Positions 38,600-48,557 are shown, counted from the first letter of the stretch. The stretch: 64,000 nucleotides of DNA from Bacilli bacterium (GCA_017429285.1 JAFRPF010000031.1:75388-139387); one strand, 5' to 3'. Notes: generated from the sequence alone by a model not told the origin. A program made the numbers and translations.

Positions 38600-40888
38600 T
38601 TATGATTCAATTTTATATTTAACAATAATATCTGTGATAACTGTATCACCGCTACCTTCTGGAGCAGTAATTCTGAAATACGTACAATACATATTGTATT
38701 CGACTTCAAATTCATGGCTTTCCTCTCCATCAGGGCAAGTAAATTCATAGGCATTATAGTCGTCATAATCCCAAGTATCCAGAACTTCACCAGATACTAA
38801 AACACATAAAGTAATTGGTTTAGTTACTTTGATGATGACACTGGTAACACCACCAGGTAATGCTGTATTATTAGCGAAGAAAGCTTTATCAGTGGTATTG
38901 AATTCAAAAGCTTGATTAGTTGTGTTATACCCAGCATATTTATAAGTGAATTCACCAATATCTGGTAGGTTTGAAATTACTGTCTCATCAGAATTACCGC
39001 TTGGTAAGAGTGCGAGACTGTCGCCTAATGAATATCCAATTGTTTTCCATTTAGCATATAAAATAGTGTCTTTAGTAACTGTATATGGTGAAGAAACGAG
39101 AGTTCCTTCAATTGGTTCTTCACTCCAACCTTCAAAATCATAAATCTCAGTTGGAGGTACTAAATCTGTTAAATCTTCTTTGGTTAGAAGAGATACCTCA
39201 CCATCTTTTTCCACTTGAATCGGGGTTAATGGATTAGAAGTTGAACCACCATTCATATCAAATGTGAGGGTCACCATATTCGCTGGATCTATTGGTTGCC
39301 ACTGAGCCACTAAAAGAATGTCACAAGATAAACCAATTGTGGTGCCAGCTGATAATAAGTCTCCTTCACCGTTAACTTTCCAACCAGCAAATTTATATCC
39401 TTCTGGAGCAACAAATCCAACCGTTTCAACAGTAGGTAGATCACCCTTATTGTCTGTGATTGTTTGTGGTGGAAGACTACCGGTTCCTCCATTAGCATCA
39501 AAGTAAACACGGAATTCTAAATTATCTTTATTAGGACTACGATAATTAAATACAATACTTTCAATACAGCCTTCAATATTGCCGCTTGGAACAGATAAAC
39601 AGAAGTAATAAGATTCATCATCACTAGAAACAAATATGTAACTAGAACCACCAGCCATAGAATGGGTTTCACCTGGGTCAGTGACTTTTTGATAAATTGG
39701 GCTAGAGCTAAAGCTCATGGTGTAATCCACCATACCATCTGGTCCCGCACTAGAATTATTTTGATCTTCACTAGTGTTAATTTGGATACTACTAATTGCA
39801 CCCATAAATGGTTTTGTGGTAGAAACAAATCCACCTTCTTCTGAGAAGTTAAGGGTTCCAGAGGTTGGGCTAGCATAAGCATTTTGGAGAAGGAAATCTA
39901 ATCCCATAAGATTGGAAACAGGAGTAATATCTGAACTTGGAGAGGTTGGAAAATAGCTAAATAAGTTACTATCTGCAGTTGTGGATATATTTTCTGCTGA
40001 AAGTTTTTCCCAACCCGCTACTAAAACTGTATCTTCTTCAACAACAATACGTTGGCCAGGTTGGATATTATCGCCTTCGCCATTAATTTTCCATCCGCCA
40101 AAGATTTCATCATTATATGGAACAAAAATATTAACAGGTAAGTCGAATTGACTATTTTTCTTTAGAAGGTAAGGACTCATTTTTCCCATTCTTCCATTAG
40201 CATCAAAGGAAACCATAACATTTTCACCGATATCTAAAGTGGATACTATTTCGGAATAGATAGATTCATAATTATATTCTTGAGATTCTTCGTTTAGAAT
40301 TCCTCTAAATATTTCAAAAGTGTATTCAGTGGAAGGATGCAAATTATCAAATTCTAATTCGTTATGACCAATAATCGCTTCTTTGTTATAACGTTCAACA
40401 TTTTCGTCGTTATATAATTCAACTTTATATTTATAACTAGCAGTGCCAGTAAATATATCAAAAACACATTCAATAGAAGTTTCATGTGGAGTGAGTTTTA
40501 AATTGTTCACTTCTGGGGCCATAGGACCAGCACCGATACTCACAATACCGGTCACTAAACAGGCTGCTGCCGCAACTGCGGCTCCAGCAGTGGCTATACC
40601 ACCTGAAGCAGCCCCGCCAGCGTGACTGCTATTTCCACTGGAACTATGAGAGCTTTGATTATCTTGGCTTTCTTGATTTTCTTTATTTTCCTTTTTCTCT
40701 TTTTTTTCTTCCTTTTTTTGATTAGAAGAGTTTTCAACAGGATTATCATTTACTTCATCACGAATAGAATCCCTATTTTCATTATAGGAAGCCGATTCTT
40801 GTGAAGGGGTCGAACCAAATTCAAAAGAAGGTTGCTGTTCTTCATTGGTGATTCTTACATAATTATATTCGTCATCAAAATAGTTCAT
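38600..40888 (-). CDS. Type-II-anchored surface protein with Listeria-Bacteroides ('Flg_new') repeats
   Basis: About 100 aa of low-complexity cytoplasmic head is followed by one TM (GIATAGAAVAAAACLVTGIVSI). Three repeats follow the pattern [VL]xFDxNGG...F.GW......L.A.W. The remaining large segments are unassigned. Confidence 0.75.
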   Translation of the reverse strand: MNYFDDEYNYVRITNEEQQPSFEFGSTPSQESASYNENRDSIRDEVNDNPVENSSNQKKEEKKEKKENKENQESQDNQSSHSSSGNSSHAGGAASGGIATAGAAVAAAACLVTGIVSIGAGPMAPEVNNLKLTPHETSIECVFDIFTGTASYKYKVELYNDENVERYNKEAIIGHNELEFDNLHPSTEYTFEIFRGILNEESQEYNYESIYSEIVSTLDIGENVMVSFDANGRMGKMSPYLLKKNSQFDLPVNIFVPYNDEIFGGWKINGEGDNIQPGQRIVVEEDTVLVAGWEKLSAENISTTADSNLFSYFPTSPSSDITPVSNLMGLDFLLQNAYASPTSGTLNFSEEGGFVSTTKPFMGAISSIQINTSEDQNNSSAGPDGMVDYTMSFSSSPIYQKVTDPGETHSMAGGSSYIFVSSDDESYYFCLSVPSGNIEGCIESIVFNYRSPNKDNLEFRVYFDANGGTGSLPPQTITDNKGDLPTVETVGFVAPEGYKFAGWKVNGEGDLLSAGTTIGLSCDILLVAQWQPIDPANMVTLTFDMNGGSTSNPLTPIQVEKDGEVSLLTKEDLTDLVPPTEIYDFEGWSEEPIEGTLVSSPYTVTKDTILYAKWKTIGYSLGDSLALLPSGNSDETVISNLPDIGEFTYKYAGYNTTNQAFEFNTTDKAFFANNTALPGGVTSVIIKVTKPITLCVLVSGEVLDTWDYDDYNAYEFTCPDGEESHEFEVEYNMYCTYFRITAPEGSGDTVITDIIVKYKIES

Positions 40889-41033: not shown

Positions 41034-41738
41034 TTAATATTTACCAAACAGCAATACAGTGATCAATAAAAGTTGCGATTTATTAACTTCAATACTTATC
41101 TCATATTTTTCGCTTAAATCATATTTTGTTAGATAATTACCGCTTATAGAGGCGAAAAATCCTCCAAATACTTTATTGATGTTATCTCCACTGATCTCGT
41201 ATAGATAAGTACTACCGACACTTCTGATGCGATTATCACTTATTTCATAAGCTAGGCCACCACCGTTTAGATAAACGTAATTACCTTCAATCGTATAATA
41301 TTGGTTATTCCTGATATCTCTAATACGATTATCACTAACTTCTAAAACTGGTCCATATCCCACTTTTTTAATATAGCCATGATTAGATAAAGAAGATGAA
41401 TAATAATCATCATTTTTGGAACTTGGTTTTTGGTAAACTCGAGGTTCTCTTTTGACCTCACTAACGATAGTTTCTTTTTTATAATTTGGTTCTTCTATTT
41501 TAATTCTTTCTTCCGCTTCTTTTTGTTTTTCTTTCATTCTTTTTGCTCTATTTCTTTCGAAAGAAATGTAATAAGTAATCATCAAAGAAAAGATAATAAA
41601 TCCAACGATTAAAACGATTAAGGAAGTGATAAAGAAAACATCATCCACTTTATATTTGGTAATAGTGAAATAACCTCCATAAAGGATCATCAAAACACTA
41701 ATAACGGTAATCGTCCAGGGAAGGGTGATTCTTCTCAT
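41034..41738 (-). CDS. Membrane protein with a C-terminal 'SDNRIR' repeat domain
   Basis: Two N-terminal TM helices and a K/E coiled segment. Repeats follow: VLEVSDNRIRDI / AYEISDNRIRSV / LYEISGDNINKV. Confidence 0.7.
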   Translation of the reverse strand: MRRITLPWTITVISVLMILYGGYFTITKYKVDDVFFITSLIVLIVGFIIFSLMITYYISFERNRAKRMKEKQKEAEERIKIEEPNYKKETIVSEVKREPRVYQKPSSKNDDYYSSSLSNHGYIKKVGYGPVLEVSDNRIRDIRNNQYYTIEGNYVYLNGGGLAYEISDNRIRSVGSTYLYEISGDNINKVFGGFFASISGNYLTKYDLSEKYEISIEVNKSQLLLITVLLFGKY

Positions 41739-41739
41739 C

Positions 41740-42657
41740 TTATTGGTTTTTTTCTTCCTCTTCGTTTCTTTCGACTTCTTCGGTCAATTGTTCACTTTTT
41801 TTATTTTCTCTTTTCTTACTAATTTCATTATAGAAATTAACAATCACAGATGTGAATACAGCCACGACAATAATTCCGGATACACCGAGAATGACTGATA
41901 ATATTCTTCCAAATGTTGTGGTGACATAAACATCACCAAAACCAATCGTGGTAATGACGGAGAAACAAAACCATAATGCATCCGCGTAACTAGTGATATT
42001 TTGTTCCACCACTGTGAAATATACAGAACACAAAACCACTAAGATTAACATAGTTAAAATGATTTCATAAACCATGGTTTTCTTAATGATTTTAACAATG
42101 ACATTAATTCTTAAAACATTGTGATATGGGAATAATAAATTCTTACTGCTAGAAACAATAATCATCGCTACATAGCAGAAAACAATAAAGTTGGAATTGC
42201 TGACTGATGTTCCGTGTTTGGCATATATCGCTGGAAAGAAAAACACAAAGGAGAATAAGAAAGAAAAGACCATACATAAAACATTAAAGATAATGGATTG
42301 TAGACTATGATCTTTTTTGATGTTTAACAAACGAGAAACAATGATGGTTAAAGAATATAAAAACATTGAGGTAACTAGGAAATAAATACTATATTTTGTA
42401 AAACCCACTAAAAGGGCTAAAACAAAGATAAAGACAGTTAAAAATATGTTTTCAAACATATTCTGCTTAAAATTGGAAAGGTGAAGACCAATTCTATTGA
42501 CCCCTAAAAGGATTAAAGCGATTGATAACGTATAGATTGAAAAATATTTGTTACTAACTGCAAAACCGATAACTATAAAACAGGAAATAATCGATAAAAT
42601 ACCACTGATTAATCCTATGAAATAATAGACGTTTTTCTTTCCTTTAACTTCTTCCAT
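41740..42657 (-). CDS. Potassium channel family protein
   Basis: A multi-TM protein with the canonical selectivity filter TTIGFGD. The ATG at 42657 (MEEVKGKK) has a GGTGA RBS, and there is 1 nt between its stop and the downstream start. Confidence 0.8.
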   Translation of the reverse strand: MEEVKGKKNVYYFIGLISGILSIISCFIVIGFAVSNKYFSIYTLSIALILLGVNRIGLHLSNFKQNMFENIFLTVFIFVLALLVGFTKYSIYFLVTSMFLYSLTIIVSRLLNIKKDHSLQSIIFNVLCMVFSFLFSFVFFFPAIYAKHGTSVSNSNFIVFCYVAMIIVSSSKNLLFPYHNVLRINVIVKIIKKTMVYEIILTMLILVVLCSVYFTVVEQNITSYADALWFCFSVITTIGFGDVYVTTTFGRILSVILGVSGIIVVAVFTSVIVNFYNEISKKRENKKSEQLTEEVERNEEEEKNQ

Positions 42658-42795
42658 GTTTTCACCTACCAATAAATACTTTTTATATATCTTCTCTTTT
42701 TAATCTAGCCAATATCTCTGTATCGGTGATCAATCTTTCTTTTTTCATTAAATTAATTTTTACATAATTATCTTTTTTAGTTAACAGTCAACTAG

Positions 42796-42828
42796 AAAAA
42801 AAGAAAACCTCAATCTTTGATTGGGGTT
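42796..42828 (-). terminator. Rho-independent terminator ending the sipW-like operon
   Basis: On the minus strand AACCCCAATC-aaa-GATTGAGGTT is followed by a T-rich run (TTCTTTTTTT). Confidence 0.8.
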
Positions 42829-42837
42829 CCTAGTAAA

Positions 42838-43659
42838 TCAATCACTATAATATTCACCATTCGGGCTATAGATAACTTCGCCATCTTTACACGTCACAGA
42901 AACATAATCTGAAGCACCAGTGAAGAAGGTGTATCCACTACCATATTTATACTCGCTATTAGTAATAAGAGTTTTAAACTGCTCTTTTGTACCAGAATAG
43001 TTGATTGCAACTGTCAATCGATTGATGTCCATCTTAAATGTTTGATATCCAAGATACTCTAATGATGCAGGAAGATAGAAGGTCATAGTTGTATTTCTTA
43101 CACAAGAAATAGTGTTGAATGCTTTATCGCAAACATATTCATATCCTTCAGGAACATTAACGGATATGTCTTTGCTAATAATAACGCCACCAACTTCCAT
43201 TGATAAAGGTTCAGATAACCCTAAGATTGGATATTTTGTTCCATTAATGGAAACACTTGCTGGAAGATTAACTGTCGCATTAGATGAAAACCAATTGCCA
43301 GCAATGTTACTTGCTGCGTATTTAGTAACTGCTAAATCACCATCTTCATCCACACCGATGCTCATAGTGACATCGCCACCATGAAGGTCTTGAGCTTCTG
43401 GGTAAGTAATTTCTGCATTTTCAACTATTTGACCATCAATAGAAACATTACCGTCTTCATCCACTTCAATTGTTTGGCCAGGTTCAATTGGAAGAGGATC
43501 ATGGAATATCCAATTATTTGTGACTCCAGCATTAACTACTTCGACTGGGTTATCACTTTTATTGAATTGCCAAGAAGCATAACCAAAAGTAATCGATGAT
43601 AAAGTACCGAGAACTAGAATAGATATTAAGTTAATAAGTCTTATCTTACGATTTAGCAT
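42838..43659 (-). CDS. Secreted or anchored protein with a BspA-type LRR-like C-terminal half; putative SipW-type cargo
   Basis: The N-terminus is MLNRKIRLINLISILVLGTLSSITFGYASWQFNKSDNPVEVVNAGV. The C-terminal VNVPEGYEYVCDKAFN...FYLPASLEYLGYQTF resembles LRR_5. The start overlaps the peptidase 3' end by 14 nt. Confidence 0.75.
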   Translation of the reverse strand: MLNRKIRLINLISILVLGTLSSITFGYASWQFNKSDNPVEVVNAGVTNNWIFHDPLPIEPGQTIEVDEDGNVSIDGQIVENAEITYPEAQDLHGGDVTMSIGVDEDGDLAVTKYAASNIAGNWFSSNATVNLPASVSINGTKYPILGLSEPLSMEVGGVIISKDISVNVPEGYEYVCDKAFNTISCVRNTTMTFYLPASLEYLGYQTFKMDINRLTVAINYSGTKEQFKTLITNSEYKYGSGYTFFTGASDYVSVTCKDGEVIYSPNGEYYSD

Positions 43660-44491
43660 GTTTTATTCTTTTTTCCTTTTTGGTTGATATTCCTAATTCT
43701 TCTAAGCGATCATTTTTAATTCTTTCCCATTTAATAATTGCAATATCGCTTATGACATATATAGCGATGACTGCAATGATGGAATAAATTCCATATCCAG
43801 AGCCAAAGAAAAGTATTACTAAGCCAATATGCTTAATATCTTTACCTTGGTAATGGTATAAGATTTGTTCACGTTTAACTGTCACATCTTCTCCAGGAGC
43901 ATTGTCTCCTCTAAAAATGAGAGTGCCATCTTCACGCTCACCTATGTAGCGGTGTGTGATTATCTTGCCATCACTATTTTTATAACCATAAACATCATAA
44001 ACTTTTAAATCAGCGTCTTTTTTTAAAACGTTAAATTGAACAAAGTCACCAACAGTGAATTGATCACGTTCAATCTTTGTCTCAGCTTGACTTAAATCAA
44101 TTGAATATTTTGATGAATATTGGCCAATAAGTTTATTCTTATAGGCCTCGCTATAATAACCCTCCATTGAATTGGAGACGATAGCAAAAGATACGTGATT
44201 ATTTGTAACGATTTGTCTTCCATTAATACGATAGATCCCTGAAACTAACGCAATACTGACTAAACCGATACAAACGAGTGCAGAGGCACCTTGCATAATA
44301 GCACCTAGCACCCGCTTAGATTTTTTCTTATTATCTTCAACTTCTTTTTTGAATTCGTCATCAAGTTTACCTATGCTAGATAACTGCTTAGCCGATTTTA
44401 AAATCATGCTATAAGCAAAAATAACTAATCCAATGATTAAAGCTGATAGAACTACCAAGGTGATAATAATTATTATCACCAAACCAGTCAT
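43646..44491 (-). CDS. Signal peptidase I, ER/archaeal (S26B, SipW-like) type, enlarged to 281 aa
   Basis: Has a Ser box IVSNSME (aa 104-110), a His box ITHRYIG (aa 178-184) and RGDNAPGED (aa 194-202). TM helices occur at the N-terminus, before the catalytic domain and at the C-terminus. Confidence 0.7.
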   Translation of the reverse strand: MTGLVIIIIITLVVLSALIIGLVIFAYSMILKSAKQLSSIGKLDDEFKKEVEDNKKKSKRVLGAIMQGASALVCIGLVSIALVSGIYRINGRQIVTNNHVSFAIVSNSMEGYYSEAYKNKLIGQYSSKYSIDLSQAETKIERDQFTVGDFVQFNVLKKDADLKVYDVYGYKNSDGKIITHRYIGEREDGTLIFRGDNAPGEDVTVKREQILYHYQGKDIKHIGLVILFFGSGYGIYSIIAVIAIYVISDIAIIKWERIKNDRLEELGISTKKEKRIKHAKS

Positions 44492-44507
44492 TTATAACCT
44501 CTATAAA

Positions 44508-45047
44508 TTAGGCAACTGTAGCTGTGTATGTGAAGGTGACTTTAGCACCATCAAGAGCACTCTTCATAGCGTCAAATTGAGCTTTAGTTGTTGGTTTATG
44601 TACCCAAGCAATTGTTGGTAAAGTGTAAGTAGCTTCTTTGACGTTTGCGCTTGCTGTAGGAGTTCCTAAGCCGCCACCTGTGACTGAGATATATGCATCA
44701 AATGCACTATCAGCAGCAAAAGCGGCTGTTAAGGTAACATCAGAAACATCACCAGCAGCTTCAGAACCTGTATAAGTTACTTTGAATGATGTTAAACCGT
44801 CTGTGACGGCTTCTTCACTATTTGTATGATCAGAAACAGTCCATCCAAGGAATTCTTGGTCAAGAGTTAAATAGAATGTTTCTTGTGATAATGTGATTTC
44901 TCCAACGCTTGCATCTTTGGTGATAGCAACGTTTGCGTTCACAACTTTTTCTGCATTTTTGTTAAATTGCCAGGCAGCAAAAGCTGTTCCAACTAAAGCT
45001 AAAGCGCCCATTGTAGCAATTGCAGAGATCTTACTTGAAATCTTCAT
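44508..45047 (-). CDS. Small (179 aa) Ala/Thr/Gly/Val-rich secreted protein; putative SipW-type cargo
   Basis: The N-terminus MKISSKISAIATMGALALVGTAFAAWQFNKNAEKVVNANV shares a motif with the 273-aa protein. It has a strong GGAGG RBS and is the first gene of the operon. Confidence 0.8.
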   Translation of the reverse strand: MKISSKISAIATMGALALVGTAFAAWQFNKNAEKVVNANVAITKDASVGEITLSQETFYLTLDQEFLGWTVSDHTNSEEAVTDGLTSFKVTYTGSEAAGDVSDVTLTAAFAADSAFDAYISVTGGGLGTPTASANVKEATYTLPTIAWVHKPTTKAQFDAMKSALDGAKVTFTYTATVA

Positions 45048-45360
45048 AATATAATACCTCCAATGAGATTCTTTAGAGTTTGTTGTGGTTCAGGGATTAA
45101 GCAAACTCCCCAATAAATTGGTAACTAATGGTTTACTCCTAAAACATATCAAAGTCAATGAAAAAAATAAAAATTATTTAGAATAAATACATATCAAAAA
45201 TTGTGTATCAATAATAATTAAAAAATAGCACTTGCAAAGTAGCAAATGCTTTCTTTTTCTTCATATAGATTCTTCTTTCTTTGAGGAATGATCTACTTAG
45301 TTAACACTCCATGTTTTTTTACCTTTGGTTGTCGCAAAAGTTCCACAATAATAAAAGAAT

Positions 45361-45391
45361 AAAAAAGGTCGCACATCTTACGTATACGACC
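45361..45391 (-). terminator. Rho-independent terminator after glmS
   Basis: On the minus strand GGTCGTA-tacgtaagat-GTGCGACC is followed by TTTTTT. Confidence 0.75.
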
Positions 45392-45442
45392 CATTAAATA
45401 AAGTTCGGAATTTTCTATTTAGTGATAAATTATCGCTAATCA

Positions 45443-47221
45443 CTATTCAACAGTTACACTTTTGGCGAGGTTTCTTGGTTTATCAACATTTAATCCCTTC
45501 GCTAAAGAAACGTAATACGCTAAATAGAAGGCAACTGAAGAAATCGCGACACTAGATAAATAATAAGCATAGTCTTTAACAACAATCGTGTCTTCATTTG
45601 AACTTAATTCTTTTGTTGAGACAACATACACTTTTGCGCCTCTACTTTTTACTTCTTCTATATTTCCTCTCATCGATGGAGCGGTATCAGGGTTTGTAAT
45701 AAAAACAATAACTGGTAAGCCTTTTTCTATTAAGGCAATCGGACCATGTTTTAATTCTCCTCCAGGGATTGCTTCAGAATGAATGTAACTAATTTCTTTA
45801 AGCTTTAAAGAAGCTTCTAAGGAGAGGAAATAATCATAGCCTCTACCGAGATAGAAAATATTTTTCTTATCTTTTATCTCGTTAGCGACTTTCATAATCT
45901 TTTCTTTGTAATTATCTTGGATATCGTTAATAACATTAATTGTTCCTCTAAGATCACTGATAACCGATTTATCATCAACTAAAGAAGCCGCTAGCATGGC
46001 TAATAAACATACTTGAGCAACATACGCTTTAGTGGAAGCAACCGATACTTCAATACCACTATGGAGGAGTAAAGAATAATCACAGTTTCTATCTAGAGTG
46101 GATCCTCCAGTATTAGTAATAACTAAATTCTTTAAATTATGTTCTTTTATAATTTTTAAGCAATGTATCAAATCTGCGGTTTCTCCAGATTGAGAAATCA
46201 TAATAATAAATGGTTTTACTCCAGGATAAGTCGGGTGAAACGCCCATTCAGAAGCGATAAATCTACTTGTAGACTTGTTATATTTTTCAAAATATCTTCC
46301 AGCGACTAATCCCGCGTGATATGAAGTTCCACAACCGATAAAAATAATATGGTCTGATTCATTTAAATCTTTGATTAATTCTTTATCAAATTGGAATTTA
46401 TCATCTTGATAATATGTATTAATTAATCGATTCACTGTTTGAGGTATTTCTTCAATCTCTTTTAACATATAGTGAGGATAACCTTTTAAATCATGAGAGA
46501 TGGATTCTATATCTTTATGAATTGTATCTTTTTTGATTACTTGTCCTTCTTTATTTAAAATCACAACTTCTTTTTTGTTGATATAACCAAATTCATCATC
46601 TTCTAATTCAATGAATTCATTCGTATATTCAATAATAGGAGAGGCATCAGAGGCCACAAGATTAAAATCTTTCCCTTTGCCTATCACTAAAGGAGAAGAT
46701 TTCTTTAAGACGAATAAAGTATCTTTTATTTCATCAGTAAAGAAAGTTATCGCATAACTCCCTTTAATTAATGATTTCACTATTTTAATAGTCTCAATAA
46801 TATCCTTATTATTTAGATAATAATATTCAATTAGATTCGCCACTACTTCAGAATCTGTTTCTCCATAAAACTCATAACCTTTATCCGATAAAGATTTTTT
46901 AAGTTCCTTATAATTTTCAATTACCCCGTTATGAACTAAACAGACATGTCCATTAAAAGAAATGTGTGGATGAGTATTAAGTTTAGTAGGCGCTCCATGA
47001 GTGGCCCATCTAGTGTGGCCAATCATAATATTAGTGTCTATTTTATTAGGAACAATAGTTACTAAATGTTCAACACTACCGACATCTTTATAGATTTTGA
47101 CGCCATTATTAAAATAGGCTAATCCAGCGGAATCATATCCGCGGTAATCAAGCATCTTTAAACCTTTTGTAACATATTCTTTTGGATTTTTTAATCCAAC
47201 TGAGCCAACAATTCCACACAT
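45443..47221 (-). CDS. glmS: Glutamine--fructose-6-phosphate aminotransferase
   Basis: The MCGIVG N-terminal nucleophile, two SIS domains and the C-terminal LAKSVTVE are present. Confidence 0.95.
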   Translation of the reverse strand: MCGIVGSVGLKNPKEYVTKGLKMLDYRGYDSAGLAYFNNGVKIYKDVGSVEHLVTIVPNKIDTNIMIGHTRWATHGAPTKLNTHPHISFNGHVCLVHNGVIENYKELKKSLSDKGYEFYGETDSEVVANLIEYYYLNNKDIIETIKIVKSLIKGSYAITFFTDEIKDTLFVLKKSSPLVIGKGKDFNLVASDASPIIEYTNEFIELEDDEFGYINKKEVVILNKEGQVIKKDTIHKDIESISHDLKGYPHYMLKEIEEIPQTVNRLINTYYQDDKFQFDKELIKDLNESDHIIFIGCGTSYHAGLVAGRYFEKYNKSTSRFIASEWAFHPTYPGVKPFIIMISQSGETADLIHCLKIIKEHNLKNLVITNTGGSTLDRNCDYSLLLHSGIEVSVASTKAYVAQVCLLAMLAASLVDDKSVISDLRGTINVINDIQDNYKEKIMKVANEIKDKKNIFYLGRGYDYFLSLEASLKLKEISYIHSEAIPGGELKHGPIALIEKGLPVIVFITNPDTAPSMRGNIEEVKSRGAKVYVVSTKELSSNEDTIVVKDYAYYLSSVAISSVAFYLAYYVSLAKGLNVDKPRNLAKSVTVE

Positions 47222-47222
47222 A

Positions 47223-48557
47223 TTATCTACCTAGATATTTCTTTAATTCGAATTCACTAACAGTGGTATGGTATTCCTTCCATTCTTTTTCTTTAGCTTC
47301 GATATATTTAGGGAACAGATGTTCCCCTAATACTTCTTTTAAAATATCGCTCTTCCTAAATTCTTCAATCGCTTCATGAAGTGTTTCTGGTAAACAAGTT
47401 ATGTTTCTACTATTAATCTCTTCACTAGTTAAATCGAATAAATTGTCTTTCACTGGAGGAATAATATCTTTTTCTTCTATCTTTTTAATTCCTTGTAATC
47501 CACAAGCAAGTATACCAGCTAAGGCGAGATATGGATTAGCGCATGGATCAACATTTCTAAATTCAGTTCTAGTCGCTAAGCCTCTAGCGGCTGGAATCCT
47601 CACTAAAGAACTTCTATTCGCATCACTCCAGCAAGCATATATTGGAGCTTCATATCCACTAACTAAACGTTTATAAGAATTAACAATTGGATTAGTTAAT
47701 AAAGATAGCTCTCTAGCATGATTTAATACACCTGTAATCCACTTTTTACACATCGTAGATAATTCCATATTAGCTTTAGGGTCATAAAATAAATCGCCTT
47801 TGTCTTTAGAATAAAGTGAACAATTAGTGTGCATGCCATTGCCAGCTTGTTTATTAAGAGGTTTAGGCATAAAACTAGCAAGATATCCATTTTTTCTACT
47901 AACCATTTTTACAACTTGTTTAAAAGTTTGCACTCTATCACAGGCTGAAATGACATCTACATATTTAAAAGTAATCTCGTTTTGACCAGGACCAACTTCA
48001 TGGTGACTTGTTTGAACTTCAAAGCCCATTCTTTCTAACATCAACGCGATTTCTCTTCTAATATCTTCTCCTCCATCAAATGGGGATAAATCAAAATAAG
48101 ACGCTTTATCACTACAATTAGTGGATACACTGCCATCACTATTTAATTTAAATAGATAGAACTCAGGTTCAAATCCGACATATAAATCATCAATCCCCAT
48201 CTCATTCATTTTCTTTACTTCTTTTTTAAGAATATAACGAGGATCTCCAATAAATGGAGTGCCGTCAGGCATATATACATCACAAATAAATCTAGCAACT
48301 CCACCATTAGAGTTATTTTCAAATGGTAATACTAAAAATGTATTTAAATCTGGATGAAGATACATATCAGCTTCTTTGATGCGAACAAAACCTTCAATAG
48401 ATGAACCATCAAACATGATTTTATTATCTAAAGCATCACCAATTCGACTAGAAGGTATTTCAACCGCTTTAATATCGCCAAGCATATCGGTGAACTGCAT
48501 CCTAATATATGAGATGTTATCTTGCTTTATGATTTTTTTAATCTCTTCCTTATTCAT
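47223..48557 (-). CDS. glnA: Glutamine synthetase type I
   Basis: FDGSSIEGF, GFEPEFYLF, HHEVGPGQNE and NGMHTNCS motifs are present. GGAGGAAG RBS. Confidence 0.95.
   Translation of the reverse strand: MNKEEIKKIIKQDNISYIRMQFTDMLGDIKAVEIPSSRIGDALDNKIMFDGSSIEGFVRIKEADMYLHPDLNTFLVLPFENNSNGGVARFICDVYMPDGTPFIGDPRYILKKEVKKMNEMGIDDLYVGFEPEFYLFKLNSDGSVSTNCSDKASYFDLSPFDGGEDIRREIALMLERMGFEVQTSHHEVGPGQNEITFKYVDVISACDRVQTFKQVVKMVSRKNGYLASFMPKPLNKQAGNGMHTNCSLYSKDKGDLFYDPKANMELSTMCKKWITGVLNHARELSLLTNPIVNSYKRLVSGYEAPIYACWSDANRSSLVRIPAARGLATRTEFRNVDPCANPYLALAGILACGLQGIKKIEEKDIIPPVKDNLFDLTSEEINSRNITCLPETLHEAIEEFRKSDILKEVLGEHLFPKYIEAKEKEWKEYHTTVSEFELKKYLGR

Follow-up and report, generated by a model that had tools for sequence, protein, structure and literature searches.

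We analysed three co-directional genes on the minus strand of a 64,000-nucleotide stretch of DNA from a Bacilli bacterium (GCA_017429285.1, JAFRPF010000031.1:75388-139387; hereafter the window, in whose numbering positions are given), which probably form a self-contained operon for the export and processing of two secreted proteins. The genes follow each other in the order cargo 1 (44508..45047), peptidase (43646..44491) and cargo 2 (42838..43659). Cargo 1 is a secreted protein of 179 amino acids (aa) and the candidate major subunit of the system, the peptidase (281 aa) is, as judged from its sequence, a signal peptidase I of the S26B (SipW/Sec11) type that is divergent and extended at its N-terminus, and cargo 2 is a secreted protein of 273 aa and a candidate accessory protein or adhesin. 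A gap of 16 nucleotides (nt) separates cargo 1 from the peptidase gene, and the start of cargo 2 overlaps the stop codon of the peptidase gene by 14 nt (ATGCTAAATCGTAA); this arrangement, which had been described in an initial annotation of the locus, was read directly from the sequence. Ribosome-binding-site-like sequences, GGAGG and GAGG, lie 5' of the first two genes.

The peptidase

Three independent lines place the middle protein in the S26B lineage, namely residue conservation, transitive homology and, as a supportive line, fold. The Ser, His and GDN boxes quoted in the initial annotation (IVSNSME, ITHRYIG and RGDNAPGED) are indeed of the S26B type, and a second Asp (D202) follows about six residues after the GDN box. 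Among 22 close orthologues, aligned down to 42% identity, the residues S106, S108, M109, H180, R181, G195, D196, N197 and D202 are invariant. In a joint alignment with relatives that pass the model TIGR02228, in which identity falls to 22%, the same holds for S106, S108, M109, H180, R181, G195 and D196, and D202 is at least 90% conserved. A Ser box, a His box and two Asp positions are hallmarks of Sec11 and of archaeal signal peptidase I (SPase I), whereas bacterial S26A enzymes use Lys where S26B enzymes have their His general base. The predicted nucleophile of the window peptidase is S108 of the S-N-S-M box (codon at 44168..44170), and the predicted general base is H180 of the T-H-R box (codon at 43952..43954), both of them invariant in the two alignments. 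The G-D-N-A-P-G-E-D box, D196 to D202 (codons at 43886..43906), holds both of the Asp residues that are conserved in S26B enzymes; the roles of its G-D-N part and of the second Asp are assigned after those established for Sec11 and archaeal SPase I.

A profile of the orthologues reaches 913 representatives of clusters at 50% identity (E<=1e-3, among 1.84 billion proteins). Six of ten sampled matches pass TIGR02228 ('signal peptidase I, archaeal/ER type'), whose cut-off is 51.85 bits, with scores of 54.7-73.8 bits. The majority of 149 inspected representatives carry S-x-S-M near residue 105 and, downstream of this Ser box, an [ITV]HR motif, at a distance of about 55 residues in the majority and of 70-110 residues in the subgroup of the window protein and some others. 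The window peptidase itself has a Ser-to-His spacing of 72 residues, as compared with about 55 in the wider family. The sole NCBIfam match to the peptidase is the SipW model NF046067 (E 5e-8, residues 144-259). In a Foldseek search with the AlphaFold model, the best matches in the Protein Data Bank (PDB) were human SEC11C and SEC11A (7p2q_A and 7p2p_A; E 2e-3 and 1.6e-2, probability 1.00 and 0.99), the subunits that perform catalysis in the signal peptidase complex, at low TM-scores and with a query model whose mean predicted local distance difference test score (pLDDT) is 64.6; the S24 domain of lambda repressor came next in the ranking.

Hydropathy marks three hydrophobic segments in the peptidase, at residues 1-30, 60-90 and 221-256, and the Ser box comes just after the second of them. 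Charge counts predict a cytoplasmic location for the K/R-rich loop 28-62 and the K/R-rich tail 250-281, and the catalytic domain (about residues 92-220) is therefore predicted to lie outside the membrane. About 60 residues at the N-terminus are extra; they comprise the first transmembrane (TM) segment and a G-x-x-D-x-E loop whose motif (G41, D44) is kept across the wider family. By its sequence, the middle protein is a divergent and N-terminally extended S26B peptidase and not a SipW equivalogue. Codon adaptation of its gene is low (rank 54 of the 63 window genes).

The shared N-terminal module of the cargo proteins

Both cargo proteins start with a basic n-region, a hydrophobic core of 17-18 residues and a helix-breaking Gly, which are followed by a conserved tag. 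The shared N-terminal segment noted in the initial annotation was recovered in pairwise and in profile comparison: cargo 1 and cargo 2 align by BLASTP with 15/34 identical residues (E 6e-6), and hhalign relates the two families with a probability of 96.5% (E 8e-10), with homology limited to the N-terminal module. Given this E-value and the conservation of the motif in 79 sequences, chance was rejected as its origin. The cargo 1 family (n=58) has the consensus L-V-G-T-A-F-A-A-W-[QE]-F-N...N-V-x-I-T and the cargo 2 family (n=21) F-G-Y-A-S-W-Q-F-N-K-S...N-A-G-[VI]-T. Both contain a two-part module of about 20 residues, in which [FY]-A|[AS]-W-x-F-N is followed about 10 residues on by N-[VA]-x-[IV]-T, and this second block stands at equal spacing in the two proteins. 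The initial annotation fell short on two points: the tag is this two-part module and not a single short motif, and the peptidase belongs to a far larger family of N-terminally extended SipW-like enzymes.

The first block of the tag is A25-W26-Q27-F28-N29 in cargo 1 (44961..44975), with a predicted cleavage at A24|A25, and S29-W30-Q31-F32-N33 in cargo 2 (43561..43575), with a predicted cleavage at A28|S29. In the cargo 1 family, position -1 is Ala in 58/58 sequences and position -3 is Ala, Gly or Val, and Trp (58/58), Phe (58/58) and Asn (56/58) follow on the other side of the cut. The second block of cargo 1, N39-V40-A41-I42-T43 (44919..44933), is kept to a similar degree (N, V and I each in 56/58, T in 58/58). 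The cargo 2 family has Ala at -1 and Gly or Ala at -3 throughout (21/21 each), Trp in 21/21 and the Q-F-N residues in 19-20/21. Counted from the Trp over both families (n=79), position W-2 is Ala and W-4 is a small residue (A, G or V) in every sequence, and W-3 is aromatic in 78, the exception being Gln. Type I signal peptidases normally read mainly positions -3 and -1, and the cut is predicted before [AS]-W because the -3/-1 rule fits at this place only. Residues 21-30, which span the predicted site, are the most conserved 10-residue block of cargo 1.

The tag is distinct from the SipW-cognate signal, as had been suspected. Membership in TIGR04088 was rejected, since neither full-length cargo matched this model at E<=1; ten N-terminal fragments from the window and from related cassettes likewise gave no TIGR04088 match at E<=10, whereas the TasA positive control scored 38-42 bits at a cut-off of 19 bits. 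The control scan also turned up the BsaA family, TIGR04090. In the six-frame translation of the 64-kb window, WQFN occurs nowhere else, and no paralogues or further tagged proteins were found there. In a distant metagenomic cassette (L008), both cargos read GYAAWNFSQRAS, and the tag therefore co-varies within a genome. A metagenomic homologue of cargo 1 (P0050, 149 aa) reads MKISSKISVVAITKDASVG and is devoid of the complete AWQFN tag and of most of the signal-peptide core, owing either to an artefact of assembly or to a natural deletion.

The cargo domains

Beyond the tag, cargo 1 and cargo 2 are unrelated. Cargo 1 consists of a Sec-type signal peptide (residues 1-24), the conserved N-terminal extension (25-47) and a beta-rich globular domain (48-179). 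In its AlphaFold2 model the globular domain is predicted at a pLDDT of 80-94, and residues 1-47 stay below 50 and do not pack onto the domain. None of its 59 homologues is named, the protein falls into no Pfam or NCBIfam family, and none of 22 orthologues has a Pfam match. A TasA-like jellyroll was considered for cargo 1 and rejected, as the best PDB fold match had an E-value of 0.098, Pfam gave no match, and hhalign against TasA reached a probability of 2.2%, with an alignment confined to the h-region of the signal peptide. The initial view that the cargos differ from TasA therefore holds in the sequence and fold searches made with cargo 1. The codon usage of cargo 1 resembles that of ribosomal proteins (rank 16 of 63, and fourth among the 49 non-reference window genes).

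Cargo 2 has a signal peptide (1-28), the tag, a domain that weakly resembles BspA-type leucine-rich repeats (LRR), and a C-terminal module. As to the LRR-like C-terminal half announced in the initial annotation, seven of 14 orthologues are weakly matched by LRR_5 (PF13306; best E 3.9e-5), but cargo 2 itself has no Pfam match at E<=1 and belongs to no family. We found 23 homologues. In two of the distant cassettes (L008 and L013) the globular domain of cargo 2 is replaced and the tag retained. The C-terminal module recurs in a metagenomic protein (P0113), where it is fused to Flg_new (Listeria-Bacteroides) repeats. Within the window, a 762-aa protein (38600-40888, minus strand) carries Flg_new repeats too, next to a low-complexity acidic and Ser-rich N-terminus, a hydrophobic segment at about residues 95-125 and an fn3-like stretch. 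The occurrence of Flg_new in this protein and in the fusion with the cargo 2 module suggests that surface-protein modules have been shuffled in this lineage. Codon adaptation of cargo 2 is low (rank 41 of 63).

Conservation and mobility of the cassette

All 12 related loci of sufficient length for a check hold the complete trio, at identities that range from 26 to 90%. These include seven species-level genomes of uncultured rumen Bacilli (L001-L007), metagenome-assembled genomes from cattle, buffalo and deer that are labelled Bacilli, Bacillales or Erysipelotrichaceae bacterium, as well as the distant metagenomic loci L008, L010, L011 and L013, at 26-52% identity. The flanks of the cassette differ even among genomes whose cassette proteins are about 87-90% identical: in four of the five closest relatives a tRNA-Ala(CGC) lies 300-520 nt upstream (L001 7054-7129, L002 7027-7102, L003 7051-7128, L004 5181-5255), and in the window this place is taken by glmS. 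The cassette takes along the promoter-like region, the palindrome and the 5' leader that are described below. With its differing upstream neighbour and its own promoter region, it has thus been relocated as a unit.

A scan of JGI metagenomes for W-[QE]-F-N-x9-N-[VA]-x-[IV]-T yielded 54 loci. In 13 of these, 16 matches follow a hydrophobic N-terminal segment, and all of them belong to cargo 1 or cargo 2; the peptidase is present in 9/9 of the scanned tag loci with enough DNA. The co-occurrence of motif and peptidase that had been proposed as a check on the locus was therefore found, in that the motif in signal-peptide context occurred only next to the peptidase. Matches outside this context (38 loci) were rejected as chance hits, in frames with stops or in an unrelated marine coiled-coil protein. 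This family of large coiled-coil proteins, seen in other metagenomes (L021, L026, L041, L042, L051, L063, L066 and L070), carries an internal 'NW[QE]FNESSE..N..NV[QR][IV]TTLKTEISS', about 555 residues from the N-terminus.

In two further loci, L015 (1198-9806) and L016 (368-9676), N-terminally extended SipW-like relatives that pass TIGR02228 stand behind two to five paralogues of about 240 aa. The N-termini of these paralogues are built alike, as G-[FY]-A-A-W-x-I...N-[IV]-x-[IV]; the paralogues have a 'WGSxFGxxNP' motif in common and no Pfam family. One of the tagged proteins at these loci is 808 aa long, and genes for large membrane proteins, for a DUF2357-like protein and for an ABC ATPase come after the paralogues. 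In view of this tag plan, the window cassette seems to be the smallest version of a wider, undescribed association between extended SipW-like peptidases and the two-part tag.

Regulatory flanks and neighbouring genes

The initial annotation had placed a promoter region at 45048-45360 and a terminator at 42796-42828. The former region is strongly conserved among relatives and can be called promoter-like. In an alignment of six upstream regions, invariant blocks at 45131..45189 (minus strand, like all features of the cassette) contain a -35-like TTGACT (45153-45158), an A/T-rich -10-like stretch downstream of it and, just upstream, the palindrome TATTTATTCTAAATA (45175-45189), which is invariant in the six genomes; these blocks form a putative promoter. 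Further upstream, the six regions are unrelated. SinR is the repressor of tapA, and by analogy the palindrome might, speculatively, be a putative operator for a repressor. Between these blocks and cargo 1 lies a conserved 5' leader (45048..45112, GGGGAGTTTGCTTAATCCCTGAACC..CTCTAAAGAATCTCATTGGAGG), which includes the GGAGG ribosome-binding site and is almost invariant in the six genomes, whereas their coding sequences are just 84-90% identical. The promoter-like region and the leader are thus more conserved than the coding sequences. In folding calculations the leader hairpin is small (-7.1 kcal/mol) and not significant. A riboswitch or other known RNA in the upstream region of about 390 nt was considered and rejected, as the leader hairpins are not significant and Rfam, at gathering thresholds, returned a single tRNA as the sole RNA in the 64-kb window; a glmS ribozyme was not found in this search either.

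As for the terminator, a hairpin with a U-run does exist 3' of cargo 2 (42792..42830; an 11-bp interrupted stem, then UUUUCUUUUUUU). It is modest by folding (-9.2 kcal/mol, z = -1.1) and was not called by the consensus terminator scan, so that a weak, terminator-like structure is what stands of the claim. On the other side, glmS lies upstream of the cassette across a 395-nt gap and has at its end a good terminator-like hairpin (45366-45392); a spacer of 1 nt separates it from glnA, and the two genes together occupy 45443-48557 on the minus strand. Two downstream neighbours were rejected as components of the system. One is a 234-aa membrane protein (41034-41738, minus strand) of which a homologue stands beside the cassette just in L011/L012; the C-terminal region of this protein repeats 'YEISxNRI/YEISGDNINKVFGG', and the 42%-identical homologue at L011 8033-8749 lies directly after the cassette and is not seen in closer relatives. 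The other is a K+ channel (41740-42672), which was seen 4 kb off and in L004 only.

Discussion

Our data point to a self-contained operon in which a dedicated SipW/Sec11-type peptidase would process two cognate secreted substrates, a reading to which we assign a probability of about 0.6 on the strength of the sequence comparisons. Both precursors would be exported through the Sec pathway, and the peptidase of the operon would cut both of them at [FY]-A|[AS]-W, that is, at A24|A25 in cargo 1 and at A28|S29 in cargo 2. This cut would expose a new N-terminus of the form [AS]-W-Q-F-N...N-[VA]-x-[IV]-T. The actual cleavage, the dedicated specificity of the enzyme and a fibre or adhesin function of the cassette are inferences.

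Several results weigh against this reading. The peptidase stays under every curated cut-off, with 32.7 bits against the 190 bits of NF046067, and in the Pfam and NCBIfam scans there was no S24/S26 match and no report of TIGR02228. The S26 search suggested with the initial annotation thus left the middle gene below threshold, yet its S26B affiliation is traceable from the orthologue profile to the relatives that pass TIGR02228. Sequence searches of the PDB, with the single peptidase sequence and with the profile, gave nothing relevant, and for this reason homology was established through the profile search and the NCBIfam scans of its matches. The peptidase model is poor, and because of this we count the SEC11 fold match (E 2e-3) as supportive evidence beside the other two lines. 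Cargo 1 has no significant fold match in the PDB (the top 50 all have E>=0.098), and no similarity of it to TasA, camelysin or archaeal bundling pilins was detected, entries for TasA, camelysin and AbpA all being absent from these 50 matches. With no likeness of cargo 1 to fibre subunits, its polymerization is therefore proposed by analogy. Neither cargo has a recognizable cell-surface anchor. Finally, the peptidase may have further substrates outside the 64-kb window, or may act as the sole type I signal peptidase.

A possible extension of the processing reading is that the two products build a fibre, which we propose tentatively, at somewhat less than even odds, by analogy with TasA and TapA. 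In TasA, a stretch of 11 residues (28-38) that starts right at the SipW cut forms the donor strand, and the homologous N-terminus of TapA nucleates the fibre (PMC9674648, PMC10151520), in which the ratio of TasA to TapA is about 100:1 (PMC10151520). The exposed extension of cargo 1, about 23 residues long, could act in the same way, so that the small and presumably abundant beta-rich subunit would polymerize through its N-terminal strand, and the rarer, LRR-like cargo 2 with the same strand could start the polymer, cap it or, as an adhesin, decorate it. Four observations hint at this indirectly: the conserved module reaches about 18 residues past the cut, beyond the needs of cleavage; in the monomer model, residues 25-47 of cargo 1 are not attached to the domain; cargo 1 differs in codon usage from cargo 2 and the peptidase, which echoes the TasA to TapA ratio; and distant cassettes swap the globular domain of cargo 2 yet keep the tag.

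The same genes could also serve processing alone, with a dedicated peptidase that cuts both cargos, a tag that acts as a recognition or export determinant, and products that work independently as soluble or surface proteins and form no polymer. We consider this unlikely, but it deserves serious attention, as the cargos have no fold or sequence link to known fibre subunits, the domain of cargo 2 is similar to the LRR adhesins of the BspA type, proteins that act as monomers, and the paralogues and the ABC ATPase of L015 and L016 could equally belong to a specialized export pathway. Against it stand the conserved mature-side module of about 20 residues, which includes a second block, N-V-x-I-T, about 13 residues past the cut and is longer than cleavage should require, the N-terminal extension predicted to be detached from the cargo 1 domain, and the codon-usage contrast between the cargos, which suggests the stoichiometry of a structural subunit and an accessory protein.

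Two other explanations deny that processing is dedicated or that it takes place. The 281-aa protein could be the general, housekeeping type I signal peptidase, placed beside two abundant secreted proteins. This would suit uncultured Bacilli with small genomes, no LepB-type peptidase was seen within the 64-kb window, and cleavage would follow the usual A-x-A rule. It is nevertheless improbable, given that the trio is kept across rearrangements, even at about 87-90% identity with all flanks differing, that cargo 2 starts before the peptidase gene has ended, that the tag co-varies within genomes and in N-terminal context was never found away from the cassette in the metagenome scan, and that codon adaptation of the peptidase is low. 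A case can also be made for no cleavage at all, with the N-terminal helices as permanent anchors, the tag as a juxtamembrane interaction motif and the middle protein as an inactive membrane scaffold: this protein fails the curated S26 models and has extra TM segments and a long Ser-to-His insertion, and neither cargo has another anchor. Such a pseudo-enzyme is disfavoured by the invariance of the catalytic residues, with Ser, His and Asp unchanged in 22 orthologues, Ser, His and D196 unchanged down to 22% identity and D202 at least 90% conserved. In both cargos, moreover, the helix-breaking Gly and the small -3/-1 residues stand exactly at the positions of a cleavable signal, and we regard uncleaved anchors as very improbable.

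Under the preferred reading of dedicated processing, the cassette shows the same operon logic as known SipW systems but departs from them in three respects: its peptidase escapes standard annotation, its cleavage-adjacent tag is another one, and its cargos have no family, one of them being adhesin-like. To our knowledge, few matrix-fibre systems with a SipW-type peptidase and dedicated substrates have been described, all of which have cargos of the TasA/camelysin fold with a TIGR04088 signal. The sources that we searched held no names or annotation for the three families, and the literature on SipW systems returned just TasA, CalY and BsaA together with archaeal donor-strand filaments. A dedicated SipW-type peptidase with cargos that share a post-cleavage segment is thus known; the extended peptidase subfamily, the distinct tag and the novel cargo domains are new. 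The peptidase belongs to a large, uncharacterized family of SipW relatives with an N-terminal extension.

Should the tag be a donor strand, the cassette would represent a new system for fibre formation and adhesin display in abundant uncultured rumen bacteria, and substrates could also be found by a simple sequence signature. Should it be a processing signal only, it would define a new class of cognate signal peptides and allow better annotation of hundreds of 'hypothetical' genes. A broader and rather doubtful proposition is that uncultured Bacilli of gut and rumen have a widespread and so far undescribed class of surface polymers that depend on a SipW-type peptidase and not on sortase, with the cassette as its minimal form. 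The module [FY]-A|[AS]-W-x-[FI], with N-[VI]-x-[VI]-[TA] about 10 residues further on, would be processed by the N-terminally extended S26B peptidases and might then be a portable donor strand that joins unrelated domains, such as the beta-rich subunit, LRR adhesins and the 'WGSxFGxxNP' paralogues, into one fibre, and the extra TM segment and loop of the peptidase might couple processing to export or assembly.

Comparison with known systems

The TIGR02228/Sec11 enzymes (MEROPS S26B; archaeal SPase I and SEC11A/C) share with the window peptidase the S-x-S-M, H-R and G-D-N...D boxes, are linked to it by the profile matches and include the best fold matches of its low-confidence model. The window peptidase differs from them in scoring under every cut-off, in its roughly 60 extra N-terminal residues and in its 72-residue Ser-His spacing. 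The archaeal donor-strand filaments (AbpA bundling pili, threads and cannulae) are alike in concept only, in that Sec export and cleavage by signal peptidase I release a subunit whose N-terminal strand completes the beta-sandwich of its neighbour (PMC9245690, PMC12518558); cargo 1 showed no fold or sequence likeness to them in the PDB search, and its own polymerization is putative.

Parallels exist in Bacillus cereus (sipW-calY1-bc_1280-calY2) and Clostridium perfringens (sipW-bsaA), where a SipW-type peptidase is encoded beside the matrix or fibre proteins that it processes and matrix-fibre assembly is independent of sortase (PMC10151520, PMC13082335, PMC11580942). In contrast to these loci, whose cargos are of the camelysin, TasA or BsaA type with TIGR04088-type signals, the window cargos belong to no described family.

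A further related system is tapA-sipW-tasA of Bacillus subtilis, whose gene order the initial annotation had seen mirrored in the window. This likeness is borne out by the order cargo, peptidase, cargo, by a translational overlap and by the shared N-termini of the cargos (PMC10151520, PMC9674648). The overlap joins stop and start of tapA and sipW in B. subtilis (PMC10151520) and of the peptidase and cargo 2 in the window. Both enzymes are Ser/His/Asp peptidases of the ER/archaeal type with a C-terminal TM segment. In both systems the globular parts of the cargos are unrelated and the segment right after the cleavage site is homologous (PMC9674648). The cut site itself follows the pattern small-aromatic-Ala|Ala-aromatic, W26-A27|A28-F29 in TasA (PMC9674648) and, as predicted, F23-A24|A25-W26 in cargo 1. 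There are also differences. The window peptidase has one more TM helix at its N-terminus, a cytoplasmic loop that is conserved, and more residues inserted between the Ser and His boxes, and it scores 32.7 bits where the SipW cut-off is 190 bits; the signals of the window cargos are not of the TIGR04088 type; cargo 1 is not a TasA/camelysin jellyroll, and cargo 2 is LRR-like and not TapA-like. The presumed major subunit, finally, is encoded by the first gene of the window cassette and by the last gene of the B. subtilis operon.

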